A DNA stretch of 64,000 nt from an uncultured Nitrospiraceae bacterium (GCA_964447405.1 CAYUSP010000003.1:691723-755722); one strand, 5' to 3'; numbered from the stretch's first letter, positions 3,087-56,464 are shown. A program made the numbers and translations. Notes: generated by a model not told the origin, from the letters alone.

Positions 3087-3157
3087 GAGTTCGTAGTTCG
3101 GAGATAAAGACCGAAACTGCGATTCTCACTTCCATCTCCGAACTCCAAACTCCGAAC
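3087..3157. repeat. Intercistronic hairpin element: arms GAGTTCGTAGTTCGGAGAT / ATCTCCGAACTCCAAACTCCGAAC, 28-nt loop
   Basis: The inner 11 bp (AGTTCGGAGAT/ATCTCCGAACT) pair perfectly. The arms are tandem repeats of an (A)GTTCGGA-like unit. The element starts 5 nt after the gspE stop. Confidence 0.8.
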
Positions 3158-3162
3158 TTACC

Positions 3163-4848
3163 TCACGTTTCCTTCTGCGTCACCCTCACTACTTCGTCAA
3201 CTGACGTGATGCCGGCGAGGATCTTTTCTGCGCCGTCCTGGCGGAGCGAACGCATGCCTTTTTCCATAGCCAGGGCCTTGATCATGGAAGCATCCGAGTT
3301 CTTCATAATCATCTGGCGCATCTCGTCATCCACCGTCAGGAGCTCATAGATCGCGCTCCTGCCAAAATAGCCGGTGTGGAAGCAGGCTTCGCACCCTTTT
3401 GCCCGATACACGGTGATGCCCGCGGCTCCTGTCCTGATCTCGAGTTCCGCGATCTCGCCGGCGGTCATCTGGTATGGCTCACGGCACTCTTTGCACAGCA
3501 CGCGCACGAGCCTCTGCGCAAGGATCCCCATAACCGACGAGGAAATAAGAAACGGTTCGATCTTCATATCAATCAACCGGGTCACCGCACCGGCGGAATC
3601 ATTCGTATGCAGCGTGGAGAACACCAGGTGTCCGGTGAGCGCGGCCTGGATCGCAATCTCAGCGGTCTCGGAGTCCCGGATCTCGCCCACAAGGATCACG
3701 TCCGGATCCTGACGCAAAACCGAACGGAGCCCCGCGGCAAAGGTGAGATGGATCTTGGCGTTCACCTGGATCTGCCCGATGCCCTTGAGCTGGTACTCGA
3801 CCGGGTCTTCGATGGTGATGATGTTCTTGTCCGGAGAGTTGATCTTCGAGAGCGCCGCGTACAGCGTGGTAGTCTTGCCGCTGCCAGTCGGGCCGGTAAC
3901 GAGAACAATGCCGTGGGGTCGCTCGATCATCGCATTGAACCTGGTAAGGGTATCCCCGGTGAATCCGATCTGATCGAGAGGCAGCAGGGCGCTTTCGCGG
4001 TACAGGAGGCGGAGCACGAGCCGCTCGCCGAACGCGGTGGGAACAATCGAGACACGGATGTCCACATCCTTGCCACCGATCTTGATGCGCATGCCGCCGT
4101 CCTGCGGCAGCCGCCGTTCTGCGATGTTCAGATCGGCCATGATCTTGACGCGCGAAGCGATGCTGGCCTGAAACCGCTTCTGGATCGTGAGAATGTTGTA
4201 CAGGATGCCGTCTATGCGGAACCGCGCGATCATCTCTTTTTCGAAGGGCTCGATGTGAATGTCGCTCGCGCGCTCGCGGATGGCCTGGGACAGGAGCGAA
4301 TTCACCAGCCTGATGATCGGAGCGTCGTCGGTGGCCTCCAGCAGGTCCGCGGGCTCATCGAGCTCCACCGCGAGAAAGGACAGGTCATCCTCCTCCATTT
4401 CCTGGACCGTATCCTCGGCGCGGTTCATGTCCTCGCTGTGAAGGCGGTTGATGGTGTCCAGGATCAGTTCGGACGGGGCAAGCACCAGCGATATATCGGC
4501 GTTGAAAAGGGCCCGGAGATCATCAAGCGTGGCGAGGACAAGCGGTTCGGATGTGGCGGCAACGACCGAGCCGTTCTCCCTGCGGAGCGGGACGGCGATC
4601 GCTTTTTTTGCGTAGGTGATGGGAACCTTGAGGGCCAGCTCGCGGTCGATTTCCCCGAGCTCGCCCTGGAACGGAAGGCGGAGCTGGGCGCCGAGCGCCT
4701 TCAGCACATCGGCCTCCGTCACAAAGTTTAACCGGACCAGCAGCGTACCGATCCGTCCGCCGCGCTTTTTCTGGAGTTCGAGCGCCTTTTTCAGCCGCTC
4801 CGGCGAAAGCCCGGACTCAACAAGTATCTCGCCGAGCAGGCGTCTCAC
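3163..4848 (-). CDS. gspE: Type II secretion ATPase GspE
   Basis: 561 aa. It has an N-terminal T2SE_N-type domain, a Walker A motif (GPTGSGKTTT), and a tetracysteine motif (CKEC...CEAC). Confidence 0.92.
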   Translation of the reverse strand: MRRLLGEILVESGLSPERLKKALELQKKRGGRIGTLLVRLNFVTEADVLKALGAQLRLPFQGELGEIDRELALKVPITYAKKAIAVPLRRENGSVVAATSEPLVLATLDDLRALFNADISLVLAPSELILDTINRLHSEDMNRAEDTVQEMEEDDLSFLAVELDEPADLLEATDDAPIIRLVNSLLSQAIRERASDIHIEPFEKEMIARFRIDGILYNILTIQKRFQASIASRVKIMADLNIAERRLPQDGGMRIKIGGKDVDIRVSIVPTAFGERLVLRLLYRESALLPLDQIGFTGDTLTRFNAMIERPHGIVLVTGPTGSGKTTTLYAALSKINSPDKNIITIEDPVEYQLKGIGQIQVNAKIHLTFAAGLRSVLRQDPDVILVGEIRDSETAEIAIQAALTGHLVFSTLHTNDSAGAVTRLIDMKIEPFLISSSVMGILAQRLVRVLCKECREPYQMTAGEIAELEIRTGAAGITVYRAKGCEACFHTGYFGRSAIYELLTVDDEMRQMIMKNSDASMIKALAMEKGMRSLRQDGAEKILAGITSVDEVVRVTQKET

Positions 4849-6748: not shown

Positions 6749-6829
6749 AACCGGAGAATCGGGGAATGGGGGCCTCGGAAAGGTTCTCGGGCCAATATTC
6801 CGTAGCTCCCGTTCCCCGGTTCCCCGGTT
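6749..6829. repeat. Intercistronic hairpin element: arms AACCGGAGAATCGGGGAATGGG / CCCGTTCCCCGGTTCCCCGGTT, ~37-nt loop
   Basis: 19 of 22 positions are complementary. The arms are tandem CCGGGGAA-like units. The element starts 6 nt after the gspC stop and lies before the gspD start. Confidence 0.8.
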
Positions 6830-6835
6830 TATGTG

Positions 6836-8776: not shown

Positions 8777-9961
8777 ATGCTGGCCGACAAAAACGTTCTC
8801 TCTGGACTGGATCTCATTGACAAACAGTGGCCCCGGGACCTCAAAGGCGCGCGTGTCGGGCTCGTCGTGCATCCCGCTTCCGTGAACCGCAACCTGCAGC
8901 ACGCGGTCACAATATGCATGAGGTCGAAGCGCTTCGAGCTCACTACGCTCTTCGGCCCGCAACACGGGATCCTCGGGCAGACCCAGGACAATATGATCGA
9001 ATGGGAGGGTTTCAAAGACCAGTCCACCGGCCTCCCTGTTTACAGTTTATACGGTAAATTCCGCAAACCTCGCCCTGAGATGTTGGCGAACATTGATGTT
9101 CTGGTGGTCGACCTTCAGGATGTGGGGAGCAAATATTATACGTTCATCTGGACATTGGAACTCTGCATGCAAGCGTGCAGGAGCGCGGGCAAGGCCGTGA
9201 TTGTCCTGGACCGGCCCAATCCGATAAATGGGCAGAGCGTTGAAGGGCCGCTCCTGAATCCCGAATACGCGTCCTTTGTCGGGCTTCGTCCCCTTCCCAT
9301 CCGCCACGGCATGACCATCGGAGAGATCGGATCCTATCTCAGAAACACATTCCATGCCGGGCTGGACTACCGTGTCATCGCCATGCAGGGATGGAAGCGC
9401 GGCATGTGGTTTGAACAGACAAAACTGCCCTGGGTAATGCCCTCACCTAACATGCCGACACCCGATACGGCTCTGGTCTATCCCGGCATGTGCCTGTTCG
9501 AGGCCACGAACATCTCGGAAGGCAGGGGTACCACGCGGCCCTTCGAGATCTTCGGTGCACCGTTCATCATTGCCGAGGCTATTGTGGACGTTCTCAAAGA
9601 ATTCAAGCTGCCTGGCGTGATCTTCCGCCCCCTCTCGTTCCAGCCCACGTTCCAGAAACACGCGAACGCACTCTGCAACGGCGCTCAGATCCATGTAACG
9701 AACCGTGACAGGTTCAAACCATTCAAGACCGGAGTAGCGATCCTGAAAGCCATCCACAATACGTATCCCCGCGACTTCAAGTGGAACCAGCCTCCCTATG
9801 AATATGAAGAAGTGAACCTTCCTATCGACATCCTGGCGGGAAGCGATCGGCTGCGCAAGGACGTCGAATCATGGAAGGACATTGATGATATGGAAGCGTG
9901 GTGGAAGGAAGAAGCGAAGGCGTTTGAAAAAACAAGGAAGCAATTCTTGCTCTATAAATAG
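8777..9961 (+). CDS. namZ: DUF1343 family protein, NamZ-like exo-beta-N-acetylmuramidase candidate
   Basis: ORF 8711..9961 trimmed to the ATG at 8777. MLADKNVLSGLDLI...ARVGLVVHPASV...VVDLQDVGSKYYTF...LDRPNPING...GLRPLPIRHGMTIGE is the DUF1343/YbbC pattern. Confidence 0.75.
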   Translation: MLADKNVLSGLDLIDKQWPRDLKGARVGLVVHPASVNRNLQHAVTICMRSKRFELTTLFGPQHGILGQTQDNMIEWEGFKDQSTGLPVYSLYGKFRKPRPEMLANIDVLVVDLQDVGSKYYTFIWTLELCMQACRSAGKAVIVLDRPNPINGQSVEGPLLNPEYASFVGLRPLPIRHGMTIGEIGSYLRNTFHAGLDYRVIAMQGWKRGMWFEQTKLPWVMPSPNMPTPDTALVYPGMCLFEATNISEGRGTTRPFEIFGAPFIIAEAIVDVLKEFKLPGVIFRPLSFQPTFQKHANALCNGAQIHVTNRDRFKPFKTGVAILKAIHNTYPRDFKWNQPPYEYEEVNLPIDILAGSDRLRKDVESWKDIDDMEAWWKEEAKAFEKTRKQFLLYK

Positions 9962-9970: not shown

Positions 9971-10103
9971 ACCGCAGAGGACGCAGAGGGGAAGCATGGC
10001 GAGGAAGGCAACGGCGGGCAAGGCATTAAGCTTTGTTTAAAAACCAGAAATAATTTTGAATTAAGATTTCCTTGGAGTTGATTTCCTCTGCTTCCTCTGC
10101 GGT
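9971..10103. repeat. Cargo-less hairpin element with the same terminal inverted repeats as the GxxExxY cassette
   Basis: The left arm ACCGCAGAGGACGCAGAGG (9971-9989) is identical to 12360-12378. The right arm CCTCTGCTTCCTCTGCGGT (10085-10103) matches the exact complement at 18 of 19 positions. The 95-nt interior is AT-rich and has no ORF. Confidence 0.85.
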
Positions 10104-10114: not shown

Positions 10115-12091
10115 ATGCCTGAATTCAATCTCAACATTTTCCTCCCCGCAGCTGGCCTCGGTGAACGGCTCAGACCGATCACGAACCACATTCCCAAACC
10201 GCTCCTTCCGATACTCGGCAAGCCAATCATCGAAGGCATTCTCGATAAACTCACTCTTGTCTGCAACGGCAGCATAGGGATTAACCTCCACTACAAGCCG
10301 GATATGCTACGCGAATGGGCTGTACGATCTACCTGGGCTGACCGCATATCATTCTTTCCCGAGGACCCGATCCTCGGGACCGGCGGCGCGCTTAAGAACG
10401 CGGAGTCATTTCTCTCCAGCAGGAACTTCATCGTCCACAACTCAGACATCCTCCTTGATATCAACTTCACCCGCCTGATCGAAGAGCACCTCTCTTCAGG
10501 TAATATCGCCACACTTGTATGCCACCGTTTGCCGGAGCTTGCCAACGTCGTGATCGATACACACGGCCAGGTCCTGGATGTAGAAAACCCGGGAGCATCA
10601 AAACCGGACGCATCGACCACTGCGGACAAGGTCGCCTATACCGGCGTCGCAATCTACTCACCGGACATATTGCAGTTTCTGCCATCCGGCGTTTCACATG
10701 CCACGGTCGCGTGGATAGCCGCGTCCAAGGCTGGTTTTCGAGTGCGCGCCTGGGATGTCACCGGCTCGTACTGGAACGACGTGGGAAATCCAGTGACCTA
10801 TGCACGAGGTGTACTGGACGCCCTGCGTGAAAACGGGGAAATGGTGCATGTCTCCCCTGCGGCACGATGCGGGAACATCCTGAGCGACGGTTATCTGGTG
10901 CTCGAGTCAAACGGGGAAGTACAGGACAGCTCCCGGCTCAGGAATTGTATTGTGATGCCCGGGGCAAACGTTTCCGGCAGTCATGCGGACTGCATTCTCG
11001 GTCCGGACTACGCGGTCGCACTTACGGAATCCGACATGCAGCCGTCGGTCCATGCGGCGGAAAAGAAACGCGTATTGCTGAACGATCCGCTTTTCTCGTC
11101 GCACTTTGGGATTCACGCCATGAGCAACTGCACAGCTGCAACTCCCAACTCGCCATTCTGGTCCGACGCAATCCTGATAGGACTCGGCGGCTCGGATAGG
11201 CGCTATTTCCGCGTACGGAACAATGGTAAGACCGCGGTCCTCATGGAGTGCCGGCAGGATGATCCGGACTATGATCGCCATTTGATTTACACCAGGTTCT
11301 TTAAAGAACATACCGTGCCCGTGCCTGAGCTCATTGCATCAGACACTGAGGGCAAACGTGCCCTGTTCGAGGACCTCGGAGACACATCGTTGTACTCATA
11401 CCTGAAGCTTCCGCACGCGGCTTATGCAGTCGAGGAAGTCTATCGGAAGGTGCTCGACATCCTGGTGCAGCTCCACACCAGGGTCACGAATCATGTATAC
11501 GGGTGCCCGACACTCAGTGCGCGAGTATTCGACTATGATCATTTACGGTGGGAAACAGGTTATTTTATGGAGCGGCTCGTCACCGGACTGAAAGATATCG
11601 CGGCGTTTGATCGGGCGGCACTGGACAACGAATTCCACCGGCTTGCGGAGCGGACAGCTGCGTTGCCCAAAAGCGTGATCCACCGGGATTTTCAATGCCA
11701 GAATATCATGATCACGGATGGAGACATGCCGCGCGTAATCGATTTCCAGGGCGCACGCATGGCGCCGCCAGGTTATGATGTCGCATCCATGCTGTGGGAC
11801 CCGTACCACCGGCTGGATGAAGGCGTCCGGGAGCGCCTTATTGGTTATTATGTGGCGGAAATGAAGAAATGTTCGGAAAATTTCGATGAGCAGGCTTTTT
11901 TGAACAGCCTGATCCCCTGCCGGCTTCAGAGACATATGCAGGCTTTGGGTGCATTTGGATTTTTGTCTGTGGTCAAGGGGAAAAAATATTTCCGCAAGCA
12001 CATACCCGAGGCAATGCGACTGTTGAAAGAGGAGACTATCCTGGTCAAGGAAGAATTTCCGACGCTGGCATTGCTCGCGTCAACACTCTGA
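10115..12091 (+). CDS. Fused sugar-1-phosphate nucleotidyltransferase (MurU-like) and aminoglycoside-phosphotransferase-fold sugar kinase (AmgK-like)
   Basis: A single 658-aa ORF. The N-terminus has LPAAGLGERLRPITNHIPKPLLPI (the NTP-transferase G-x-G-x-R motif). The C-terminus has HRDFQCQNIMI...VIDFQGARMAPPGYDVASML (APH/AmgK-type catalytic loop). Confidence 0.65.
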   Translation: MPEFNLNIFLPAAGLGERLRPITNHIPKPLLPILGKPIIEGILDKLTLVCNGSIGINLHYKPDMLREWAVRSTWADRISFFPEDPILGTGGALKNAESFLSSRNFIVHNSDILLDINFTRLIEEHLSSGNIATLVCHRLPELANVVIDTHGQVLDVENPGASKPDASTTADKVAYTGVAIYSPDILQFLPSGVSHATVAWIAASKAGFRVRAWDVTGSYWNDVGNPVTYARGVLDALRENGEMVHVSPAARCGNILSDGYLVLESNGEVQDSSRLRNCIVMPGANVSGSHADCILGPDYAVALTESDMQPSVHAAEKKRVLLNDPLFSSHFGIHAMSNCTAATPNSPFWSDAILIGLGGSDRRYFRVRNNGKTAVLMECRQDDPDYDRHLIYTRFFKEHTVPVPELIASDTEGKRALFEDLGDTSLYSYLKLPHAAYAVEEVYRKVLDILVQLHTRVTNHVYGCPTLSARVFDYDHLRWETGYFMERLVTGLKDIAAFDRAALDNEFHRLAERTAALPKSVIHRDFQCQNIMITDGDMPRVIDFQGARMAPPGYDVASMLWDPYHRLDEGVRERLIGYYVAEMKKCSENFDEQAFLNSLIPCRLQRHMQALGAFGFLSVVKGKKYFRKHIPEAMRLLKEETILVKEEFPTLALLASTL

Positions 12092-12334
12092 TACAATCGG
12101 CTGTGCGCCTCTATCCCTCATTGCTTTCTCCACTGCCGTGATTTGCTCGTTAAGCAACTTGCACTCTTCCTCGTATTCCGTGGTCAAATTCTGCGCTTTT
12201 TCGGCGCCGATGTGCACCGAGGTCTTCACGAAGGTGAATGAGTGCATGTCCTGCAGGTCGCACAGGTTATCCTTCAACCGCTTGAGCTCGGCTTTGAGTT
12301 CGTCGAAGGACATATCGTTATAATTCTTTGTCAT
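12080..12334 (-). CDS. Small hypothetical coiled-coil protein (84 aa)
   Basis: ORF trimmed to the ATG at 12334 (MTKNYNDMSFDELKAELKRLKDNL...). I recognise no family. It is AT-richer than its neighbours. Confidence 0.4.
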   Translation of the reverse strand: MTKNYNDMSFDELKAELKRLKDNLCDLQDMHSFTFVKTSVHIGAEKAQNLTTEYEEECKLLNEQITAVEKAMRDRGAQPIVSEC

Positions 12335-12359
12335 AACACAAACCTCAAAACCTTTTTTT

Positions 12360-12845
12360 ACCGCAGAGGACGCAGAGGAAGTCAAACCCGCTGGCCTATA
12401 ATCCGTTGGCGACTCTCTTAATGCCATCTTTCAAATGAACAACATTGAAGTTTATTAATAGCCCAAGCTTTTTATTGCTTAATTTCAGGTATGAAAGAAT
12501 TTGTGCTTCATGAATCGGCAATATTTTCTCAACTGCCTTCAATTCAACGATAACACAATTGTCAAGCATAAGGTCTATTCTATATCCGGCATCGATCTTC
12601 AAGCCATCATACAGGATCGGCAAGGCCATTTGAGAAAGCACGGTTAATCCGAGCTTTCGTAGTTCATGCAGCAAACATGCTTCATACGCGCTTTCCAGCA
12701 AACCAGGACCCAAAGCTGAATGAACTTTCATTGCAGCTTCAATAATCTTACCACTAACCCCATTTATATCCATTTATTCCAGACCTCCTGTCTATCCTGC
12801 CAGTTTTTGACCTCCTCGCCTCTCACCCTCTGCGTCCTCTGCGGT
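12360..12845 (-). mobile_element. Hairpin-bounded cassette carrying a GxxExxY gene (perfect 19-bp terminal inverted repeats)
   Basis: ACCGCAGAGGACGCAGAGG at 12360-12378 is the exact reverse complement of 12827-12845. The interior is AT-rich. The element begins 6 nt after the cca stop. Confidence 0.7.
12396..12773 (-). CDS. GxxExxY family protein (PD-(D/E)XK-like small protein)
   Basis: 125 aa. It has the motif G-L-L-E-S-A-Y in ...HSALGPGLLESAYEACLLHEL, a typical ...DLMLDNCVIVELKA... core, and an AGGAGG RBS 8 nt upstream. Confidence 0.85.
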   Translation of the reverse strand: MDINGVSGKIIEAAMKVHSALGPGLLESAYEACLLHELRKLGLTVLSQMALPILYDGLKIDAGYRIDLMLDNCVIVELKAVEKILPIHEAQILSYLKLSNKKLGLLINFNVVHLKDGIKRVANGL

Positions 12846-12851
12846 GAAAGA

Positions 12852-16636: not shown

Positions 16637-16689
16637 ACTATTGATAAGAGGGAAACGTCGGTGAAGGATTCTATCTTACTTCTATCTTC

Positions 16690-17877: not shown

Positions 17878-18105
17878 AAATTATCCCCCCTCCACAAATG
17901 GAACACTTACAGTTCAGCTTTGTTAAAGAAAAATAGCGAAAAAACCCGTAAAATCGCGCTCATCATAGCAAATTTGCAGTAGAAGTGCAATCAAAAGTAT
18001 GGTACTATTCAGCGTATTTTTTGGGTTTTTGGGGGTTTTTTCGCAATAAATTGACCTTCAAAAAATATATCCCATTACAACCGCACTCACGTTAGGATCA
18101 ATATC

Positions 18106-20246: not shown

Positions 20247-20807
20247 ATGGTTGGCTGGATACTGCTTGCTGTGCTTGGCCTGGTCATTATCTGGATCATC
20301 GTGATCTATAATGGGCTCGTATCGTTACGGAACGAGGTGCAGAATGCGTGGAAGCAGATCGATGTGCAGTTGAAACGCAGGCATGATCTGATCCCGAACC
20401 TGGTGGCAGCTGTGAAAGGCGCGCTGGAATTCGAACAGGACACCCTCGAAAAAGTGATTTCAGCCCGGGCAAAGGCCGTTTCCGCGGGATCTGCCGCATC
20501 CAAAGCCGACGCTGAGAACATGCTGACCCAGGCCATCGGAAAGCTCTTTGCCGTGATGGAGAACTACCCCGCGCTCAAAAGCAACGAAAACGTCCTGCGT
20601 CTCCAGGAGGAGTTGACCTCAACCGAGAACAGGATTTCCTTCGCGCGACAGTTGTATAATGACCTCGTTGCTAATTACCGGACCAGGCTCCAGGTCTTCC
20701 CGAACAATATCATTTCGTCAATGTTCAACTTTCAGACCGAGGAATATTTTTCAGCCGAGGAGCAGGCCAAGGCCACACCGGCTGTGAATCTGAGCATAAG
20801 GAAATAG
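20247..20807 (+). CDS. lemA: LemA family protein
   Basis: ORF trimmed to the ATG at 20247, preceded by GGGAGG. It has an N-terminal TM helix and YNGLV.LRN.V..AW.QIDVQLKRRHDLIPNLV, the LemA pattern. Confidence 0.85.
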   Translation: MVGWILLAVLGLVIIWIIVIYNGLVSLRNEVQNAWKQIDVQLKRRHDLIPNLVAAVKGALEFEQDTLEKVISARAKAVSAGSAASKADAENMLTQAIGKLFAVMENYPALKSNENVLRLQEELTSTENRISFARQLYNDLVANYRTRLQVFPNNIISSMFNFQTEEYFSAEEQAKATPAVNLSIRK

Positions 20808-20810: not shown

Positions 20811-20921
20811 GGACAGAAGTAAGAAGACAGACTGAACCAATATACCGCACGCTTGTATACCTTGTCTATTGTCTGACTTCTCTCTTCTGTCCTCTGTCTT
20901 CTGTCCTCTGTCTTCTGACCC
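20811..20921. repeat. Cargo-less hairpin element related to the four-helix-bundle cassette, plus tandem CTCTGTCTTCTGTC units
   Basis: The left arm GGACAGAAGTAAGAAGACAGAC (20811-20832) pairs with GTCTGACTTCTCTCTTCTGTCC (20871-20892) at 19 of 22 positions. Its first 16 nt are identical to 29288-29303. It starts 3 nt after the lemA stop. Confidence 0.8.
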
Positions 20922-22576: not shown

Positions 22577-23251
22577 ATGATCACGATTAAGTTATTTGCG
22601 AATCTGAAGGACAAGGCAGGAAAGAGCGAGCTGCATATAGCTGCACAACAACTCACCCTATCAGACCTTATTGAGCGGATTGCCCGGGAGCATCCCGCCC
22701 TGTCCGAAATGCTATCCTGCGGCAGGATCATTGTATCTATCAATCAGGAGCTCGCGGGCAGGGATGCACTGATCAAGGATGGCGATGAAGTTGCGCTTAT
22801 GCCGCCGTTCTCGGGAGGTGGTCCGTCAGCGGGCGTAGTCCGAATACAGAAAGAGCCTTTTTCCATAGAAGAGGAAACAACTCGGCTGAAAACCTCATCA
22901 GCGTCCATCGGAGCGATTGTGGCATTCCTCGGGACTACCCGCGATATATCCAGGAATAAAAAGGTATCCCAGCTGGAGTTCGAACACTATCCCGGCATGG
23001 CGGAAAAAATGCTTCTCGAGTTGAGAGAGCGGGCGATCAGGGATTATAGGATACTCGATGCGACGATCATACACCGCACCGGCATCATACCCGCGGGCGA
23101 CGACATCGTCCTCGTCCTCGTCGCGGCCGGGCACCGCGACGAAGCATTTGCAGCATGCCGCTTCTGCATTGATGAACTAAAGAGAACTGCGCCTATCTGG
23201 AAAAAAGAGACCACGCCGGAAGGCGAGGTGTGGGTGGAGGAACATCCATGA
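22577..23251 (+). CDS. Fused MoaD-MoaE molybdopterin synthase (small and large subunits in one ORF)
   Basis: 224 aa. The N-terminal ~81 aa form a ThiS/MoaD-type fold ending ...ALMPPFSGG. This is followed by a MoaE-like region (IGAIVAFLGTTRD...EHYPGMAEK...LVLVAAGHRDEAFAACRFCIDELKRTAPIWKKE). Confidence 0.8.
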   Translation: MITIKLFANLKDKAGKSELHIAAQQLTLSDLIERIAREHPALSEMLSCGRIIVSINQELAGRDALIKDGDEVALMPPFSGGGPSAGVVRIQKEPFSIEEETTRLKTSSASIGAIVAFLGTTRDISRNKKVSQLEFEHYPGMAEKMLLELRERAIRDYRILDATIIHRTGIIPAGDDIVLVLVAAGHRDEAFAACRFCIDELKRTAPIWKKETTPEGEVWVEEHP

Positions 23252-23372
23252 GGCAGAGGTTAGAAGATTGATGACAGGCAAACCCAATAAAGCTCTTTGG
23301 TTCAGACTGCTATCTTTAATCTCTTGTTAGTCTGTCTTCTGACAGTCTGTTCTTATCGTCTTTTGTGCTCAA

Positions 23373-24806: not shown

Positions 24807-25433
24807 ATGTACATCGATCAACCGATACGACAGTTTATGGACAAACTGGCCAGCAAATCTCCCGAACCTGGAGGCGGCAGCGTAGCAGCGCTTACCGGAT
24901 CGCTCGGTGCGGCACTGGTAAGCATGGTCTCGAATCTCACCCTCGGTAAGGAAAAATACAAGGACGTTCAGCCTCAGATCGAACAGTTGCTCAAGGAATC
25001 GGAAAAACTGCGAACAGAAATGCAGGACCTCATCCAGAAGGACACCGAAGTATATGGCGCTCTTTCCGAAGTTTACAAGATGCCAAAGAATACTGATGCG
25101 GAAAAAGCTGCGCGCACTGCAAAGATGCAGGTGGCGTTGAAAAATGCCTGCCAGGTTCCCTTTGACATCGGGATGAAATCACTGGAAGTGGCGAAACTCG
25201 CCCGTCGCGCTGCCGATATCGGGAATGTTGGCGCGGTCAGCGACGCGGGCGTGGCCGTGCTGCTCGCCCAGGCCTGTGCGCAGAGTGCCGCGCTCAATGT
25301 CAAGATCAACGTGAACAGCATCAAGGATGATGCATACAACCAAGACACCTGGACACGCATGCAGGATGTGCTCGGCCAGGTTGCGGCTCTGGAAAAATCA
25401 GTGATGGAAACGACGTATAAGAAAATGGGCTAA
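24807..25433 (+). CDS. Cyclodeaminase/cyclohydrolase family protein (FTCD C-terminal / FchA-like methenyl-THF cyclohydrolase candidate)
   Basis: ORF trimmed to the ATG at 24807. ...FMDKLASKSPEPGGGSVAALTGSLGAALVSMVSNLTLGKEKY... is the family hallmark. Confidence 0.7.
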   Translation: MYIDQPIRQFMDKLASKSPEPGGGSVAALTGSLGAALVSMVSNLTLGKEKYKDVQPQIEQLLKESEKLRTEMQDLIQKDTEVYGALSEVYKMPKNTDAEKAARTAKMQVALKNACQVPFDIGMKSLEVAKLARRAADIGNVGAVSDAGVAVLLAQACAQSAALNVKINVNSIKDDAYNQDTWTRMQDVLGQVAALEKSVMETTYKKMG

Positions 25434-25439: not shown

Positions 25440-25547
25440 GGGTCATGTAGCATGGGTCAAGCAGCAAGGATCCAAGAGCGGGCGGTAACGATCTTGTTTG
25501 ATGGTTCTCCCCATGCTACTTGCTACAGTGCTTTTGCTACTTGACCC
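25440..25547. repeat. Hairpin element with arms built from GGGTCA(A/T)G(T/C)AGCA units
   Basis: GGGTCATGTAGCATGGGTCAAGCAGCAAGG (25440-25469) faces CCATGCTACTTGCTACAGTGCTTTTGCTACTTGACCC (25511-25547). The outer 14 bp pair at 13 of 14 positions. It starts 6 nt after the upstream stop. Confidence 0.7.
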
Positions 25548-26576: not shown

Positions 26577-26619
26577 AAAAAACCCCCGGGAGATTGCTCC
26601 CCCGGGGGTTTGTTTTTGC
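26577..26619. terminator. Bidirectional rho-independent terminator between folD (+) and the porin gene (-)
   Basis: GC-rich stem AACCCCCGGGAG/CTCCCCCGGGGGTT with a 4-nt loop. It is flanked by AAAAA upstream and TTTGTTTTT downstream, so either strand reads as a U-tract terminator. Confidence 0.75.
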
Positions 26620-27952: not shown

Positions 27953-28665
27953 TCATCCTCCCTTAACATTGATTTTGCCCCGAATTGCTCCGGAACACAA
28001 GGTAACCTCTTTTTTATCTACAACTCAAAATGATGCCGATGCATTATTGCGGTTTATTGGGACAGCACCCCCCCTTTCATCTTTGTATCAAAATTTTGAA
28101 CAAACGAAGGATAGAGACTCAAGTCCACATAGTGAGCTGATGTGCATTTCAAATTTTACTGCATTTCTTGTATTTTTTTTGCGGAATCCCTTGCTGCTGC
28201 TTTTGGGACAACTGATGTATTGCTCAACGCGAACACGTTGGCAATGGTGATATGTAGGTCTGTCAGTGGTTATCATTGATTGATAATTTCATACGAATCT
28301 GCCACTAGCACAAACAACTACAAACAACGAAATGTGAAAACCGGGGAAGACAAAACACGTGATGCAAGCATTCAATGAGCATTTGGAAGCAATTGAAGTA
28401 GGGCAAATATAACAAAGTCGCATAGTCAAGTCAAGACTTTTCTACCTCATTGAAATGGGAATAAAACATGATCAGTTGCAGATTACCGAAACTATAAACT
28501 CGCTGACTTGCTGACGTAGAAAAGATTGCCCGCGCATATAACACCATTCATTCATGAAACAGGTCCCAAAAAGTCTGACGTACCTCAGCTGCGATTTGAT
28601 CAATCAGTCGGACCTGTGGCTAACCAGTCGCCGCCAATTCCCGGGATCATCATTTCAGTTTCCCC

Positions 28666-29313
28666 TTGCCATCACAAATAACTCATGCTATAACGCTCGT
28701 CATGTCAACCTCTCCCTCCTTAGAAGAACAGATAACGATGGCGGGCCTCACATACGGACGCCGCCACGACATCGCATACCGCTCCGGCATGGTGCTCCAG
28801 GTATGCGGTGCTGCCTTGCTCGCTGTGCTGTATCCGCTCGACAGCCCGTTCTATACCATAGGCATCATGCTGTTCGAAGCCGGCGTACTGCTTTCTGCAA
28901 TCTATCTTCTCGTTTGGATGCGCCCGGTCAAGAAGATAATAGTCGGGTCGGTGATCGCAGGGCTCGTTCTTCAAGTAGTCGGTGCCTTCGCGGCCCCGGA
29001 ACAATATGCGGGTCTGGTTCTGCTCTCAGGAATCGGGCTCGTCTGCGCTGGAGCGGCTGGGATGGTCGGCAATGAGGCGTTTTGCTTTGGATACCGTGAA
29101 GGCTGGGTGCTTATGCTGGCTGGATTTCCCGTGATGGTCCTGGCAAATCTGCTGCTCAGAGAGAACCGCATTTTCAATTCGCTGGGTTTCTCCGTTATTT
29201 TTTTACTGCTGCTTTCACTTACAGGCAAGAAGCTAAGGCAGAAATTGCTTTCTTTACCCTCTACAAGCGTTTGCGGGGTGTCGGAGAGGACAGAAGTAAG
29301 AAGTAAGAAGTAA
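28666..29313 (+). CDS. Hypothetical multi-pass membrane protein (possibly DUF2301-like)
   Basis: It has 5-6 predicted TM helices and a ...GNEAFCFGYREGW... motif. The start is uncertain (alternative ATGs at codons 13 and 25). The last ~9 codons and the stop lie inside the repeat arm of the downstream cassette. Confidence 0.5.
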   Translation: MPSQITHAITLVMSTSPSLEEQITMAGLTYGRRHDIAYRSGMVLQVCGAALLAVLYPLDSPFYTIGIMLFEAGVLLSAIYLLVWMRPVKKIIVGSVIAGLVLQVVGAFAAPEQYAGLVLLSGIGLVCAGAAGMVGNEAFCFGYREGWVLMLAGFPVMVLANLLLRENRIFNSLGFSVIFLLLLSLTGKKLRQKLLSLPSTSVCGVSERTEVRSKK

Positions 29314-29736
29314 GAGAACTACCAAATATAATTCGTCCAACATGAAAAAACATAACTTCAGAAATCTAAAAATCTACCAACGAGCCATAGCATTCGCTGT
29401 GGATATTTACCAGATCAGCAGGAGTTTTCCGCAGGATGAAATTTATGGGCTGACAAGTCAGATACGACGGGCCGCAACTTCAATCCCCCTTAATATTGCC
29501 GAAGGCAGTGGCAGCACATCAGGAAAAGAGTTTAGGCGATTTCTTGAAATTGCTTTACGTTCTGATTATGAGGTATTGGCCTGTCTGGAAATATCATTAC
29601 GATTGAATTACTGCAATCATGCGGTTTTTGAAAAACTGACTCAGGAAGCAAACGAAATAGCATCCATGATAGCTGGATTCTCAAAAAGCCTATAATCTTA
29701 CTTCTTACGTCTTATCTCCTTTTTCTTTCTTCTGTC
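29288..29736 (+). mobile_element. Hairpin-bounded cassette carrying a four-helix-bundle (23S rRNA IVS-type) gene
   Basis: The left arm is GGACAGAAGTAAGAAGTAAGAAGTAAGA (29288-29315). The right arm is TCTTACTTCTTAC...CTTCTGTC (29696-29736). The inner 13 bp and outer 8 bp are complementary. The cargo is AT-rich. The stop codons of both flanking convergent genes fall in the arms. Confidence 0.65.
29342..29695 (+). CDS. Four helix bundle protein (23S rRNA-intervening-sequence protein family)
   Basis: 117 aa. ...LKIYQRAIAFAVDIYQISRSFPQDEIYGLTSQIRRAATSIPLNIAEGSGSTSGKEFRRFLEIALRS..E is the canonical pattern of this family. Confidence 0.85.
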   Translation: MKKHNFRNLKIYQRAIAFAVDIYQISRSFPQDEIYGLTSQIRRAATSIPLNIAEGSGSTSGKEFRRFLEIALRSDYEVLACLEISLRLNYCNHAVFEKLTQEANEIASMIAGFSKSL

Positions 29737-40029: not shown

Positions 40030-40149
40030 GGTGTGCAGTCAACAACGAAGGATGCGTATGATCGCGGTTATTATTCCACCTGCCCCGTATTCACGGTTCC
40101 ACTGATAGGCTCCGGGTACAGGCTCCGCGATCCTTAATCCGCACTCAAA

Positions 40150-42786
40150 TTACTTCCCATGGCACTTTTTGTACTTCTTCCCGCTTCCGCAGGGGCAGGG
40201 ATCGTTCCGTCCCACTTTGGCTCCCGCGTGCACCGGCTGGGGGACCGAGGCTGCCGCTTCGCCGGCCCCGACGAACGTGAGATTGGCGATCTGGCGCTTC
40301 TGCTTCCGTTCGATCTCCTCGCCCTGGTCTTTGGCTGCGGCCTTGATCCGGAAGAGGTTCTCGACGGTGGTCTCGACGATGCGGAGCTTCATTTCCTCGA
40401 ACATTTCGAAGCCTTCTTTTTTATATTCGATGAGCGGGTCCTTCTGTCCGTATCCCCGGAGTCCGATGCCTTCCTTGAGGTGGTCCATGGCAAGCAGGTG
40501 GTCCTTCCACTGGTAGTCCACGGCCTGCAGCATGAAGACCTTTTCGAGGTGGCGCATGAGTTCTGGACCGGCCTGCTGCTCCTTCTCGTCATAGCTTTGC
40601 TTCAGGGCCTGCCACAATTTTTCGCGGAACTCATCGCGGGACAGGTTCTGCGGATCGATGGTGCCCATGCGGTAGGAAAACTTCGCGGCCAGCACATCGG
40701 TGAGGCCGGTGATATCCCAGGCTTCGGAATAGGCGTCTTCGGGGCAGTAGAACCCGAGCATGCCGTCGAGCATTTCCTCGGCAAGGCCGAGCATCTCATC
40801 TTTCAGATCCGTGCCGGAAAGGATCTGGCGGCGCTGTTCGTAGATCACCTTCCTCTGCTGGTTCATGACATCGTCGTACTCGAGGATGTGCTTCCGCATC
40901 TCAAAGTTGTGCGCTTCGACCTTCTTTTGCGCATTCTCAATGGCGCGCGACACCATGCGGTGTTCGATCGGCATATCCTCTTCCATGCCCAGTTTGCCCA
41001 TGAGCCCCGAGATGCGGTCCGATCCGAATATCCTGAGCAGGTCATCCTCAAGCGAAAGATAAAACCGCGACGAACCGGGGTCGCCCTGCCGGCCCGAACG
41101 GCCGCGAAGCTGGTTGTCGATCCGCCGCGCCTCATGCCGTTCCGTGCCGAGGATATGGAGCCCGCCTGCGGCGATCACTTTTTCCTTTTCAACGGCGCAA
41201 AGCTCCCTGAACTGGGCCAGCGTCTTGTCCCATTCCTCAGAGGTATATTCCTTGCCTTTGAGCGCCTGGCGCGTGAGCCCTTCGGGATTGCCTCCCAGCA
41301 CGATGTCCGTGCCGCGGCCTGCCATGTTCGTGGCGATCGTAACAGCTGCATGCCGGCCTGCCTGGGCCACGATCTCGGCCTCCATCTCGTGGTACTTGGC
41401 ATTCAGCACCGAGTGCCGGATGCCCTTCTTTTTTAGCAAGGCAGCCAGGGTCTCGGATTTGACGATGGATATGGTGCCCACGAGGACCGGCTGGCCGTTC
41501 TTGTGCAGTTCCTCGATTTCCCTGATGGCAGCCAGGAACTTGCCCTGCTCGGTCTTGTAAATGTAGTCGGCGCTGTCCTTGCGCACCATGGGGCGGTGCG
41601 TGGGAATGACCAGCACATCAAGATTGTAAATCTTCCCGAACTCCGCGGCCTCGGTCTCCGCTGTTCCGGTCATGCCCGCGAGCTTGGCATAGAGGCGGAA
41701 GTAATTCTGGAACGTGATCGAGGCAAGCGTCTGGTTCTCGTTCTCGATCTTGACGCCTTCCTTTGCCTCGATGGCCTGGTGCAGGCCGTCGCTCCAGCGC
41801 CTGCCGGGCATGAGCCTGCCGGTGAACTCGTCCACGATCATAACCTGATCGTCCTTGACCACGTAGTCCACATCGCGGCTGAACAACGCATGGGCCTTGA
41901 GCGCCTGATGCACATGATGCACGAGGTCCACGTTGGCGGGGTCGTACAGGTTCCCGGCGCCGAGCATTTTTTCGACCTTGATGTTTCCATCTTCGGTCAG
42001 GGCCGCAGTCTTGGTCTTTTCCTCGATCGTATAGTCCGTGTTCTTCTGCAGGCTCGGGATGATCCGGTTTATCTTGTAGTATTTGTCCGTGGAATCTTCC
42101 GTGGGTCCGGAGATGATCAGCGGGGTCCTGGCCTCATCGATCAGGATCGAGTCCACCTCGTCGACAATGGCGAAATTGAGCTCGCGCTGGACGTAATCAG
42201 CAAGATCGAACTTCATGTTGTCGCGAAGGTAATCGAATCCGAACTCGTTGTTTGTGCCGTAGGTCACGTCCGCGGCGTAAGCCTGCTGCCGCTGCTCGTC
42301 GGTAAGGCCGTGCACGATCACGCCGACCGTGAGACCCAGGAACGAATACACGGGCCCCATCCACTGAGCATCGCGGCGGGCGAGATAGTCGTTCACGGTC
42401 ACCACGTGAACGCCCTTTCCTGAGAGGCTGTTCAGGTACACGGGAAGCGTCGCAACCAGGGTCTTGCCTTCACCGGTCTTCATCTCAGAGATCTTGCCCT
42501 GGTGCAGGACGATGCCGCCGATGAGCTGCACATCAAAGTGGCGCATGCCCAGGGTCCGCTTGGACGCCTCGCGCACGACCGCGAACGCCTCGGGAAGCAT
42601 GTCGTCCAGCGTCTCACCGTCTTCGAGCCGCTTCCTGAACTCATCAGTTTTGGCCCGCAGCTCGGCGTCGGAAAGCCGGGCAATTCCGTCCTCCTGCGCA
42701 TTAGTCGCGTCCACCAGATGCTGAATGCGCTTTAATTCCCGCTCATTCGCGGTGCCGAACATTTTTTTCAGGATCGATCCGATCAT
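40150..42786 (-). CDS. secA: Preprotein translocase ATPase SecA
   Basis: 878 aa. It has ...[14 protein letters not shown]... (Walker A), [19 protein letters not shown], and a C-terminal zinc finger [15 protein letters not shown]. Confidence 0.95.
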
Positions 42787-45518: not shown

Positions 45519-45601
45519 TAGAGTCAGAGCGAAGGCCTGTCACGGATTACCTGCGGTGTGATCAAGTAATACCGGCATAAGTTGTTTTCGATGCATGATC
45601 A

Positions 45602-45638
45602 GGTCCTATCATCGAGCGGATGATGGGACCTTTTTATT
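45602..45638 (+). terminator. Rho-independent terminator after katG
   Basis: The stem GGTCCTATCATC/GATGATGGGACC (one G-U pair) has a 5-nt loop and is followed by TTTTTATT. Confidence 0.8.
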
Positions 45639-47647: not shown

Positions 47648-47680
47648 GACAAAGAAGACCCCGCCCATCAGGGCGGGGCC
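47648..47680 (-). terminator. Rho-independent terminator after the cytochrome c' gene
   Basis: The minus strand reads GGCCCCGCCC-TGAT-GGGCGGGGTC followed by TTCTTTGT. Confidence 0.7.
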
Positions 47681-53979: not shown

Positions 53980-54032
53980 GGCGTCTCCCGTGGTGCAGCT
54001 GCGGAGCAAAGCACATACGTTAGCAAGTAGCG

Positions 54033-54782
54033 TTAAAAGCGTATCTCCATACCTGCCACTGCATAGTGAAACAGCGAGAATGTATATACTTCGCTATTGT
54101 CGGCACCGCCTTCCAGCACGCGGTAGCCGGCAAAGAATCTGGTCGAGCCGCTGACGTCATACATCATCGCGAAAAATACGTCCTCGGCCCTGCCTTGTGT
54201 CGAGCCGAGCGCGTCGCCGGCAACGCGGAACGTCCAGGGCTTCGTGAACCGCCAGTCAATAAGGAAATTGATCAGCGGTACGAAGCCGGTGTTCTTTTTC
54301 TCGGCCCGCAGGCCGCCCCCCTCGACCGTGATCGCCGCATCACGGACCTTGGCAGTCAATCCCACCCAGGTGTCGAGATCATCGCGAGTGACGAGATTCC
54401 TGCGCCAGGTAAAGCGATAGGAGTCGAAGCGGAATGTGGCGTCAAGGTCCGTTCCTGCCGGGAAGGTCTTTCCGGCAAAGCGGATATCCCGGTCCAAACG
54501 GCCGTGGGAACTCAAGCTGAGCGGAGAAACGACGACACCGAAGTAATCGCGCATATCACGAATGTACCCGGCTTCCAGCCGCCCGGTGAATTTGGTGTCG
54601 GTCTTAAGGTCGTCAGAGAACGAAAACCGCGTCCCGGTATCTCCCGGGATGCGGACATCATTCTTACTCGTAAATACTTCCGCAGCCTGCAGATTGAATA
54701 CATATTCCGCAGCCACCGGATCCGGCAGGCAGAGGAACCCGGTCAGAGTGATTAACAGACCTGCAATCCGTGCATTGATCAT
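54033..54782 (-). CDS. Outer-membrane beta-barrel protein, function unknown
   Basis: ORF trimmed to the ATG at 54782, preceded by AAGGAG. It has a signal peptide, an alternating beta pattern, and ends ...AVAGMEIRF. Confidence 0.55.
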   Translation of the reverse strand: MINARIAGLLITLTGFLCLPDPVAAEYVFNLQAAEVFTSKNDVRIPGDTGTRFSFSDDLKTDTKFTGRLEAGYIRDMRDYFGVVVSPLSLSSHGRLDRDIRFAGKTFPAGTDLDATFRFDSYRFTWRRNLVTRDDLDTWVGLTAKVRDAAITVEGGGLRAEKKNTGFVPLINFLIDWRFTKPWTFRVAGDALGSTQGRAEDVFFAMMYDVSGSTRFFAGYRVLEGGADNSEVYTFSLFHYAVAGMEIRF

Positions 54783-55069
54783 GGCGGACTCCTTTTTTTC
54801 TTCTCGATAAATGCTCGGTCCCAACACAGAGGAACCGAACAATATGTTTCTCAAACGCGCCAAGCGCCCGCTGCAATTACTGCACACGAAGACCTGGCAA
54901 CGCGTTCTTTTAATTGATCGACTGGCGGCCTTTGCGGACGCGCCCGGGAACCGCTTAGCTTGCTACGGTCGCAAGGCGAGACACGTCCCCCGTTTTCGCA
55001 CTGCTGTTTACTTAATTATATATGAGAATGGCGTTTCGGGAGAATGAAACCGCATATCCCGCTGCCCGT

Positions 55070-56236
55070 CTATGAGGCTCTAAGCGCCTCGACGATTTTC
55101 ATGCGGCTGGCGCGGAAGGCCGGCAGCACACCGCCCACCAAGCCCATGATCAGCGAGAAGATGAGCGACTGCACGACGATTTCCGGGGTGAGGCTGAAGG
55201 AGAATGCCAGCTCCGAAAAGGTCTGCCAGTTCACGGTCGAGATGGTGAAGAGCTGCAGAAACGACGAAATGAAAATCCCCGCAAGCCCGCCGACGAGGCC
55301 CAGCAGAAGGGACTCCACGAGGAACACGACCATGATGCTCCTCCTTCGAAACCCGAGTGCACGGAGCGTGCCGATCTCGGCGGTGCGGTTGGCCACGGCC
55401 GCGTACATGGTGATCATGGCGCCGATGACTGCGCCGAGGGAGAAGATGATCGTAAGCGTCATTCCCATGATGCTCAGAAAGGTTGCCATCATCTCGGACT
55501 GGTCGCTGTAGAATTGCTTTTCGCGTTTCGCTTCCAGAGTAAGACGCGGGTCCGTTTCGATCCGTTCCTTCAATGTTGGAAAGGCCGAGGCATCCCTCAA
55601 CCGGAAGAGCACTGATGAGTACACCGGTCTGCGAAATGCCTGCATAAGCTGGTCCGAGTCCCCCCAGATCTCGGAGCTGAAGCCCGTGGTGCCCGCGTCA
55701 AAGGTCCCGACCACGGTCCAGTCGCGCATGCCGAACCGAAGCGTCTCGCCGATACCGCCGCCCTTGAAACGCTTTGCCACGCTCTGGCCCGCGATCACCT
55801 CCAAGGATCCCGGCCTGGGCATATGCCCGTCAACCAGTTTCACCTGCGGCCGCAGCGCGAGCGATGCATCGGTGATGCCGCGGATAACCACATTCGACGG
55901 CTTGTCCGTGCCCCGCTTGGGCAGGGAAATGAGCACCACGATCTCCTTGGCCAGGAGCTGCCTGCCGTCAATGCCAACGGCGATCTCGGGCTGGGACTCG
56001 ACCACAGCGGCCTGGCTGCGGTCCACGCCGCTCTGGACCTCGGTCTGCGAAGCCTTGCGGATCACGACCACATTGTCCAACGATCCGGTCTGGACCAGCG
56101 TCTGCCTGAGCCCGGTCGCCAGCATCAAGGTTGCGGCAAACACGAAGACCACAAGCGCCATGCCCGAAGCGGTCAGCACCGTGGTGAGACGGCGGGTCCA
56201 GAGGTTCCGGAAGCTGTAGGAGAAAGGAATGGCCAT
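55070..56236 (-). CDS. ABC transporter permease, FtsX/MacB-type (second of two)
   Basis: 388 aa. It has an N-terminal TM helix, a large periplasmic MacB_PCD-like domain, and a C-terminal FtsX 3-TM bundle (...EIGTLRALGFRRRSI...). Confidence 0.85.
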   Translation of the reverse strand: MAIPFSYSFRNLWTRRLTTVLTASGMALVVFVFAATLMLATGLRQTLVQTGSLDNVVVIRKASQTEVQSGVDRSQAAVVESQPEIAVGIDGRQLLAKEIVVLISLPKRGTDKPSNVVIRGITDASLALRPQVKLVDGHMPRPGSLEVIAGQSVAKRFKGGGIGETLRFGMRDWTVVGTFDAGTTGFSSEIWGDSDQLMQAFRRPVYSSVLFRLRDASAFPTLKERIETDPRLTLEAKREKQFYSDQSEMMATFLSIMGMTLTIIFSLGAVIGAMITMYAAVANRTAEIGTLRALGFRRRSIMVVFLVESLLLGLVGGLAGIFISSFLQLFTISTVNWQTFSELAFSFSLTPEIVVQSLIFSLIMGLVGGVLPAFRASRMKIVEALRAS

Positions 56237-56264
56237 AGTTAGCGTATGAGACTAAAGATTAAAA

Positions 56265-56464
56265 AATCTTTGACACGGAAGGAGCGGATGAAAAGCGGAT
56301 ATTGGCAGATAACGCCTAAATAGGTCCGTATCCCTCAGTGTTAAGCACGTCATTCTTTTAATGTTAACAGCTTCGTTCTAGAAGCGAGGATGAACCTCGG
56401 ATTGCGATTGTTAAAATCCGCCCTTATCCGGATTTCTGATCCGCCGTGATCCGTGTCAAAGATT
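56265..56464. repeat. 200-bp element bounded by a perfect 15-bp inverted repeat AATCTTTGACACGGA / TCCGTGTCAAAGATT, inserted between the two permease genes
   Basis: The arms are at 56265-56279 and 56450-56464. The sub-terminal GCGGAT-rich imperfect repeats also pair. The interior is AT-rich and has no ORF. It begins 10 nt after the upstream permease stop. Confidence 0.8.

Follow-up and report, generated by a model that had tools for sequence, protein, structure and literature searches.

What places hairpins with repeat-built arms directly behind one stop codon after another in a single stretch of bacterial DNA? The stretch, hereafter the window, is 64,000 nt of an uncultured Nitrospiraceae bacterium (CAYUSP010000003.1:691723-755722) with a GC content of 55%. 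A first-pass annotation had listed eight hairpins within 10 nt of stop codons and a ninth, degenerate copy at moaDE; all nine were found where it had placed them, with stop-to-arm gaps of 0-10 nt that differ from its values by 1 nt at most, and a wider census added six further members, for about 15 elements in the window. The answer that we favour, with moderate confidence, is that the elements are palindromic cassettes of a widespread class, together with remnants that have lost the gene, and are built like the intervening sequences (IVSs) of 23S rRNA. They are probably selfish, and their class is in part already described. The nine listed elements are as follows (a strand is given where one was assigned).

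3087-3158: hairpin separating gspE from gspF, with a 28-nt loop and arms of (AGTTCGG)3 and complement (inverted repeat 19 nt, 89%); gspE stop 3163-3165, arm edge 3158, gap 4 nt (5 nt in the first-pass annotation).
6749-6829: hairpin between gspC and gspD; arms (ACCGGGGA)n and complement; gspC stop 6836, arm edge 6829, gap 6 nt.
9971-10103: gene-less hairpin of the CGCAGAGGN nonamer family, from namZ to an NTP_transferase/APH gene (inverted repeat 19 nt, 95%); namZ ends at 9961, arm edge 9971, gap 9 nt; the hairpin lies 11 nt ahead of the downstream ATG.
12353-12849, minus strand: GxxExxY cassette, co-oriented with cca; CGCAGAGGN arms at 12356-12378 and 12827-12849 (inverted repeat 23 nt, 96%); cca stop 12852, arm edge 12845 (core) or 12849 (extended), gap 6 or 2 nt.
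20811-20917: gene-less hairpin of the GACAGAA/GTAAGAA heptamer family, from lemA to an M48 peptidase gene, with extra TCTGTCY units until 9 nt before the ATG; lemA ends at 20807, arm edge 20811, gap 3 nt.
23252-23350: degenerate copy of the GACAGAA/GTAAGAA heptamer family between the convergent genes moaDE and merR; moaDE ends at 23251 and the copy starts at 23252, gap 0 nt.
25440-25543: weak hairpin of the GGGTCAT/GTAGCAT family, from an FTCD_C gene to folD (inverted repeat 28 nt, 71%); the FTCD_C gene ends at 25433, arm edge 25440, gap 6 nt.
29289-29736, plus strand: IVP cassette, made of a (GAAGTAA)n array, the IVP gene (29342-29695, plus strand) and a (TCTTACT)n array that reaches the stop of a convergent sigma-54 activator gene; the stop of the upstream DUF2301-like membrane gene (TAA, 29311-29313) overlaps the array at 29289-29315.
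56265-56465: long hairpin with CGGAT-rich arms between two FtsX/MacB permease genes; permease stop 56475, arm edge 56464/5, gap 9-10 nt.

The gene of the minus-strand cassette (12396-12773, minus strand) encodes a GxxExxY/PDDEXK_3 protein (PF13366, 1e-42; NCBIfam TIGR04256), and that of the plus-strand cassette (29342-29695) encodes a four-helix-bundle protein of the 23S_rRNA_IVP family (S23p, Avd-like; PF05635, 1e-37; TIGR02436), whose nearest solved relative is the pentameric Xanthomonas protein XCC0516 (PDB 2gsc, 1.6e-14). A PF05635 loop open reading frame (ORF) was found in this one window element only. Both cassette genes score low under a codon model trained on the window, and the IVP stretch has a GC content of 46%. 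Each family is very large and numbers thousands of close homologues, most of them on short contigs. PADLOC returned nothing significant for either protein, a PDB sequence search with the GxxExxY protein gave no match, a scan of viral contigs using the IVP alignment gave no relatives, and exact look-ups of the lemA and IVP proteins gave no record. On an NCBI contig, protein P0121 is identical to the GxxExxY protein of the window.

The gene-less hairpins look like deletion derivatives of such cassettes that lost the inner gene, because they align with the cassettes beyond the arms: the loop ends of the lemA hairpin align with the leader and stop region of the IVP cassette, and the namZ hairpin aligns for about 20 nt past the arms with the GxxExxY cassette (12353-12849).

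Two smaller observations concern the cassettes themselves. Within 29292-29315, (GAAGTAA)3 places TAA in three frames within 21 nt, and the stop of the membrane gene is one of these; since the arm has TAA in every frame, any ORF that enters it terminates immediately. An 84-aa ORF (12080-12334, minus strand) shares its strand with the GxxExxY cassette and lies right outside the left arm; it is also called on an identical metagenome contig and has no Pfam or NCBIfam match.

Cassettes of the same build recur in unrelated bacteria. A search by protein identity retrieved IVP genes in the following junctions.

L150: between DUF2130 and cas10.
L157 and L163: between cas1 and cas2.
L161: between selA and selB.
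L162: 3' of a peptidyl-prolyl isomerase (PPIase) gene.

At all five loci a purine-rich heptamer array stands 0-5 nt after, or over, the upstream stop, and a complementary array stands 3' of the IVP gene; the units, among them GACAGAG, GGCAGAG, GACAACA, and GATAACA, are of the same heptamer family as in the window, and in L161 the arms contact both the TGA of selA and the ATG of selB. GxxExxY genes fetched without reference to the repeat, from a Nitrospirota bin (L164), a metagenome genome (L165), and a Binatia bin (L169), have CGCAGAGGN nonamer arms on both sides; the TAA of the upstream methyltransferase gene in L165 lies within the TTTAACC end of the element, and in L169 the upstream ORF terminates within the arm. 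In each of the seven co-directional junctions, the cassette ORF runs in the direction of the host operon (one-sided p about 0.008). Particular repeat families travel with particular cassette genes across phyla, CGCAGAGGN with GxxExxY and GACAGAR with IVP. The same heptamers are known from rRNA. In Coxiella, the 23S rRNA IVS has a 28-bp terminal-repeat stem, which RNase III cuts, and an S23p ORF in the loop, and its 5' arm consists of AGAAGA, three tandem GACAGAT, and one GACAGAA, with a copy number that varies between strains (Warrier et al., 2016; PMC4990558); these heptamers are of the unit family found in the arms at 20811 and 29289 of the window and in L150, L157, and L161-L163. This establishes a kinship of the window elements with rRNA IVSs.

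Outside the window, IVP and GxxExxY cassettes also recur inside defence operons: between cas1 and cas2 (L157 1353-1923 and L163 1099-1644), upstream of cas10/csm1 (L150 1381-2028), and, in L165 972-1450 and L169 982-1524, between a restriction-modification methyltransferase gene and a ResIII helicase gene and between DUF1156 and DUF499 genes.

The nonamer family could be followed furthest. Its exact 16-mer, GCAGAGGACGCAGAGG, was found at at least 120 loci, which among the matches listed include Cyanobacteria, Planctomycetota, Acidobacteriota, Verrucomicrobiota, Chloroflexota, Proteobacteria, Nitrospirota, and others, and the extended context TTnACC-GCAGAGGnCGCAGAGG is common to most of the loci among those matches. 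By arithmetic, about 280 matches to a 16-mer are expected by chance in that collection, and it is therefore the shared flanks and the nearby complementary arms that give the matches their meaning. In 49 cases the purine-rich arm leads and in 8 it trails, and these 8 are mostly junctions of two adjacent elements. The idea that this order follows transcription was rejected, as a perfect inverted repeat is identical on both strands; purine-first order is therefore a property of the element and not of its orientation. A logo of the end motifs, blurred by imperfect array boundaries, has a weak stop-triplet peak at -5.

With regard to position, the observation at the head of this text is real and, in this window, statistically strong. 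An insertion point drawn at random from the non-coding DNA of the window, with the elements removed, has a probability of 0.086 of falling within 10 nt of a stop, as against 8 of the 8 listed elements and 14 of the 15 in the wider census, so that the positional rule of the first-pass annotation is borne out within the window. The members beyond the nine are as follows.

301-332, minus strand: unpaired tandem heptamer array found with Tandem Repeats Finder (TRF), CAGGGGT x4.6 on the mRNA strand, 4 nt past the stop of a pseudopilin-like gene (337-684).
728-768, minus strand: unpaired heptamer array, CATGGGG/CAGGGGT, beginning at the stop of a pseudopilin-like gene (768-1304).
1271-1302, minus strand: GGGTCAG-like heptamer array, 8 nt past the stop of gene 1311-1751 and within the first ~11 codons of gene 768-1304.
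1790-1836, minus strand: degenerate AGGGTCA-like heptamer array, 5 nt past the gspF stop and 5' of the Shine-Dalgarno site of the next gene.
16669-16689, minus strand: short unpaired array, GAAGATA GAAGTAA GATAGAA, starting right after the aroC stop.
17928-18047: repeat-armed hairpin with A5-6C3 / T5-6G3 units, in the spacer of two divergent genes and 50-58 nt away from either start codon.
40033-40145: uncertain, degenerate member with TGCGGAT / TAAGGAT / CGCGGAG units, occupying the spacer after gene 40150-42786.

Unpaired G-rich heptamer arrays (301-332, 728-768, 1271-1302, and 1790-1836) thus trail the stops of four consecutive pseudopilin-like genes and gspF; the array at 1271-1304 would fall in the cleaved prepilin leader of the pseudopilin-like gene if the ATG at 1302-1304 is its true start. 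In the co-directional spacers of the window, the gap on the stop side is smaller than that on the start side in 10 of 11. When array occupancy was counted in 281 kb (the window and 29 syntenic relatives), arrays were present in 31/205 co-directional, 11/35 convergent, and 2/28 divergent spacers. Distances could not be taken from arrays: TRF alone often finds only one arm, and array-based distances are therefore misleading. A Smith-Waterman inverted-repeat screen with shuffles was too conservative, and an RNAfold-anchored table performed better, still requiring reading by eye; stop-to-stop ORFs, useless as a gene proxy in GC-rich loci, were replaced by rough per-locus codon models. In the fold table, read by eye, roughly 70% of the co-directional hairpins start no farther than about 10 nt from the stop, and the others lie near the middle of longer spacers.

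These counts bear on the reading that the elements act as DNA. Pairs of tandem repeats on opposite strands in Geobacter metallireducens are taken, in the accessible part of Aklujkar et al. (2009; PMC2700814), for sites of integration host factor (IHF) or HU, and tandem direct repeats are typical of protein-binding arrays. It is nevertheless very unlikely that the window elements are sites at which a nucleoid or global regulator of IHF/HU type binds tandem repeats on both strands. At least six unrelated units share one architecture within 64 kb and would demand as many proteins; periods of 7-9 bp lose the helix face; the arrays lie in transcribed junctions, not in promoters, as judged from the spacer counts above; and the purine-first polarity and the enclosed genes would be left unexplained.

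The arms consist, as first described, of tandem short repeats, with a period of 7, 8, or 9 by TRF, the permease element being the least regular. They measure 19-27 nt at 12356/12827 and 29289/29710, and the gene-less copies have stems of 20-40 bp. The description of the arms as lacking shared sequence, on the other hand, is overstated, as families recur both across phyla and within the window, namely GCAGAGGAC twice, GACAGAA/GTAAGAA three to four times, GGGTCAG/T five times, and TGCGGAT-like units twice; arm sequences of 16-19 nt are identical, with similar flanks, at separate loci of the window. A purely local origin, in which replication slippage at gene ends would let simple-sequence repeats grow in place and template switching would add the inverted copy, all without function or mobility, is quite unlikely. 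Such an origin would fit the copy numbers that vary among strains in the Coxiella IVS and between L150 and L153, the presence of unpaired arrays, the occurrence of different units at one junction in different relatives, and the confinement of arrays to spacers, because coding DNA cannot sustain a period of 7 or 8. It would not predict identical arms with similar flanks at separate loci, the same units with conserved end motifs across phyla, units tied to particular genes, or a polarity of 49 to 8.

Most of the paired elements fold better than shuffled sequences. The gspE hairpin reaches -36.8 kcal/mol (z -3.1), the gspC hairpin -51.5 kcal/mol (z -4.1), and the permease hairpin -83.4 kcal/mol (z -6.2), and z is -5.6 for the namZ hairpin, -4.3 for the lemA hairpin, and -4.1 for the hairpin at 17928-18047 in the divergent spacer. 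The moaDE copy (z -1.1), the FTCD copy (z -1.5), and the element at 40033-40145 (z -0.5) fold no better than shuffles. As read from the sequence, four or more G3 runs occur in the GGGTCAG arrays (301-332 and 728-768) and in ACCGGGGA, and not in the GAAGTAA, AGTTCGG, GCAGAGGAC, and CGGAT arms. Stems that follow stops call to mind ordinary intrinsic (rho-independent) terminators, all the more as the permease hairpin is followed by T6, the sole element with such a T-run, and the gspC hairpin by TATTTT. We consider this extremely improbable: most elements lie within one operon (gspE-F, gspC-D, lemA-M48, and the permease pair), with loops of 28-450 nt, stems of 20-40 bp, and mostly no T-run. A consensus terminator scan of the window called none of them as a canonical terminator, whereas it did call three classic sites with a GC stem and a T-run elsewhere (26580-26611, 45601-45631, and 47657-47680), in agreement with the first-pass annotation that the elements are not of this kind.

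Comparison of orthologous junctions showed gain, loss, and turnover: the junctions are empty or differently filled from one relative to the next. The permease genes of L121 overlap as TGATG, whereas 238 nt separate those of the window. At the lemA-M48 junction, L142 has a 7-nt spacer, and nearly all other relatives have repeat-armed hairpins with differing units (GGGTCAG, CCAGGAG, TGCGGA, GACAGAC, and others), all of which begin 0-6 nt after the stop. No element lies between the M48 gene and moaDE in the window, where the spacer is 15 nt, or in six relatives, where the genes overlap (-4 or -6); in others this junction holds nonamer hairpins or a 552-nt insert. The FTCD-folD junction holds the GGGTCAT/GTAGCAT family both in the window and in L137 (5897-6030). 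In the L122-L127 clade the stems have decayed to a consensus energy of about -8 kcal/mol, and a covariation analysis of two orthologous sets from this clade found almost no compensatory change.

Some of these junctions in relatives hold further palindromes. A family GTCATTCCCG...CGGGAATGAC, each arm of which is itself a hairpin, occurs in the same junction type in L146 (830-1383), L133 (1864-2059), and L139 (4596-4799); the L133 and L139 copies are gene-less, and the loop ORF of the L146 copy begins MTSKQYYIYIM and may be GIY-YIG-like. In L135 (251-509) and L138 (1727-1928), the loop of the CCAGGAG-armed lemA-M48 hairpin holds a second, unrelated perfect palindrome, GGATCGAAGCTCCCTGCAGC...GCTGCAGGGAGCTTC. 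A 14-copy CTTCTGC heptamer array of 99 nt, far longer than the window arrays, lies over the annotated end of a gene in L136 (5858-5956).

Turnover and decay also bear on whether the host profits. REP (repetitive extragenic palindromic) elements stabilise upstream cistrons, as in malE-malF, and the window elements might by analogy be host-beneficial RNA elements under selection, protecting the upstream cistron from 3' exonucleases, serving as processing sites, or tuning expression of neighbouring genes; alternatively, the G-rich arrays might form G-quadruplexes, as proposed for REP and the Xanthomonas heptamers. Stable stems at operon junctions would fit, as would the greater stability of the sense strand in 20 of 30 cases and the retention of one family at the FTCD-folD junction of the window and L137; the accessible part of Rehm et al. 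(2015; PMC4692102) adds that the Xanthomonas repeats are transcribed and mostly position-conserved. We nonetheless think a host role of this kind unlikely. Orthologous junctions are empty or hold unrelated units, the L122-L127 stems have decayed almost without compensatory change, the difference between sense and antisense strands is not significant (p = 0.21), and a tie to two compositionally foreign small genes across phyla would be unexpected. The strong selection for stop-proximal stems that had been suggested at first is not supported: stems decay, covariation is scarce in one clade, and the strand comparison is not significant.

The sequence of events that we propose for the cassettes is the following. 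A full cassette carries, in order, a purine-rich tandem array of 7-9-nt units, a small gene (IVP/S23p or GxxExxY PD-(D/E)XK), and a complementary pyrimidine-rich array; in the transcript, the arrays would pair into a stem of at least 20 bp, the build of the 23S IVS that RNase III excises, and the stem length in the window is compatible with such excision. In the window the elements occupy, within protein-gene operons, the very short spacer between a stop and the next start or stop, and they would be co-transcribed with the host genes, the transcript stem rendering the insertion nearly harmless. Loss of the inner gene would leave a bare hairpin, which would then decay slowly. Three causes may contribute to the stop rule. 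Much of the stop proximity arises because the occupied junctions are only about -4 to 15 nt long when empty. Further, the ribosome-binding site of the next gene must keep near its start, which would push the element toward the stop. Finally, gaps of 0-10 nt lie within the downstream footprint of the ribosome, and a stem starting inside the footprint of the terminating ribosome would be opened at each termination; the opened stem would expose a purine-rich, Shine-Dalgarno-like arm and might thereby lead to translation of the cassette gene or of the next gene. A mechanism that targets insertion to stops is possible.

Several results weigh against cassettes and their remnants as the explanation. 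No target-site duplication flanks any of eight elements, and no mobility event was seen, neither a strain-level presence/absence polymorphism nor a transposase; in favour of the mobility that had been proposed from full/empty pairs are the likeness beyond the arms of gene-bearing and gene-less copies with the same arms and the empty or differently filled junctions of relatives. To fill the lemA-M48 junction with different units would take either many independent arrivals at one tiny site or rapid change of the two arms in concert, and the proposal accounts for neither. Few cassettes were sampled, and common ancestry may link some contexts, namely the two cas1-cas2 loci. Among gene-less CGCAGAGGN copies of other phyla, stop enrichment is weak: when genes were called roughly, locus by locus, only 10 of 82 intergenic copies ended 10 nt or less from a stop (null 5.9%, p = 0.02), and the strict rule therefore holds for cassettes and for the operon junctions of this lineage, not for every gene-less copy. 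Even in the window, the hairpin at 17928-18047, in a divergent spacer, is an exception. The strand comparison given above counts here as well, as does the lack of a Shine-Dalgarno motif in 8 of 10 downstream genes compared with 28 of 51 other genes, a difference that is not significant.

A broader and bolder proposal, which we put forward only tentatively and hold to be doubtful, is that IVP/S23p and GxxExxY genes with inverted tandem arms form one pan-bacterial class of selfish cassettes, of which the rRNA IVS would be the best-known landing site. Such cassettes would home to the few nucleotides just after stops, sometimes supplying the stop, and ride the host transcript; translation of the cassette gene and of the downstream host gene would depend on the terminating ribosome opening the base of the stem, and the stem would join stop and start, as a bacterial counterpart of termination-dependent ribosome shunting. 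The bare hairpins and stop-proximal heptamer arrays, thousands in number, of Geobacter, Xanthomonas, cyanobacteria, Planctomycetes, and Acidobacteria would be their remains. The IVP and GxxExxY families lack a known function, as do the abundant 7-9-nt intergenic repeats of many phyla, and the spread of rRNA IVSs has been a puzzle since about 1990. If these were one kind of element, three puzzles would merge into a single testable system, in which the RNA stem, the partner protein of each repeat family, and the landing position at operon stops, including those of cas1-cas2 and selA-selB, are all defined. In practice, metagenome assemblies break at the elements, ORF calls at gene ends come out too long or too short because of them, and they could change how the genes of an operon are coupled.

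As for the surroundings, 18.7 kb of the window are identical to a metagenome contig, and the window is syntenic with a Desulfuromonadaceae genome bin (L121) at 72-75% nucleotide identity; its closest matches are Desulfuromonadaceae and Trichlorobacter bins. By Pfam, the genes that flank the elements encode type II secretion system (T2SS) proteins E, F, C, and D, NamZ, a CCA-type nucleotidyltransferase, LemA, an M48 peptidase, MoaD-MoaE, an FTCD_C protein, FolD, a DUF2301-like membrane protein, and two FtsX/MacB permeases. An Rfam scan of the window at gathering thresholds found no family, hence no rRNA, and every element lies between protein genes. The stretch at 28-30 kb is low in GC. A 785-nt low-GC spacer between divergent genes (27953-28737) is without a called gene, and TRF found small repeats in it at 28310-28328 and 28498-28515.

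Among known systems, the 23S rRNA IVSs of Coxiella burnetii, Leptospira, and relatives of Xanthomonas come closest, with terminal inverted repeats that form a long stem and, in some IVSs, a PF05635 loop ORF. They differ in sitting in helix 9, 25, or 45 of the rRNA, with proven RNase III cleavage, whereas the host of the window elements is an mRNA spacer at a stop; the window in turn has several more repeat families and a second cassette gene, GxxExxY, on the same build. REP, bacterial interspersed mosaic elements (BIMEs), and REP doublets forming hairpins (REPINs) resemble the window elements in being extragenic and palindromic, in lying at gene 3' ends near stops, in forming larger hairpins as pairs, and in having a cognate gene flanked by repeats. 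Unlike the tandem direct repeats of the window arms, REP arms are short imperfect palindromes, with a conserved 5' tetranucleotide, and their gene is a REP-associated tyrosine transposase (RAYT), a Y1 (IS200/IS605-like) enzyme; no RAYT was seen in the 64 kb, the genome beyond the window being unsurveyed, and the repeat-flanked genes are GxxExxY and IVP. Liang, Rudd and Deutscher are said to have found in 2015 that terminating ribosomes are affected by REPs that lie no more than about 15 nt from a stop. Compared with MITEs (miniature transposable elements with inverted repeats), inverted repeats and derivation from a gene-bearing parent are present and target-site duplication is absent (eight elements).

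Heptamer repeats of this position have been reported before. According to the accessible part of Rehm et al. (2015; PMC4692102), tandem heptamers (GGGAATC in Xanthomonas and GGGGAYT in Nostoc) stand between aligned ORFs, are rare in coding DNA and in divergent spacers, and have a strong bias to adjoin or overlap stops; each Xanthomonas genome has 70-75 inverted "convergent" pairs, and the repeats are transcribed and mostly position-conserved between two species. The window elements match these heptameric simple sequence repeats (SSRs) in their spacers of aligned ORFs, in their nearness to or overlap with stops, and in their frequent convergent inverted pairs, and the positional rule has therefore already been published for one family. 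The Xanthomonas and Nostoc repeats, as far as that part of the paper goes, have one unit per genome, are read as G-quadruplex formers, and carry no link to cassette genes or IVSs, whereas many units, several of them not G-rich, occur together in the 64 kb of the window.

In a lineage related to the host, G. metallireducens, the accessible part of Aklujkar et al. (2009; PMC2700814) describes 24, 21, and 8 pairs of three to five tandem 7-9-mers on opposite strands as classes 1-3. Like the window elements, they are opposite-strand tandem sets at variable distance, as in proB/proA; class 3 (MTYCTGA) matches the CCAGGAG/TCAGAAG hairpins of L135 and L138, and class 2 (TCTCCGTS) resembles the nonamer family. 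That account, in the part available, does not bring in hairpins or RNA folding, stop proximity, or cassette genes. MacGregor (2015; PMC4679880) describes tandem heptamers of unknown function in spacers of cyanobacteria, Beggiatoaceae, and Bacteroidetes; unlike the window elements, the cyanobacterial short tandemly repeated repetitive (STRR) sequences and TAACTGA repeats are mostly direct arrays just 5' of starts, with one unit per lineage and rare inverted pairs. Our literature search found no publication that joins IVSs, the paired sites of Geobacter, and the heptamers of Xanthomonas and Nostoc. Taken together, the kind of element and its bias to the stop side are already in the literature, and the link between the IVP/GxxExxY cassettes and the rRNA IVSs is the part worth following.

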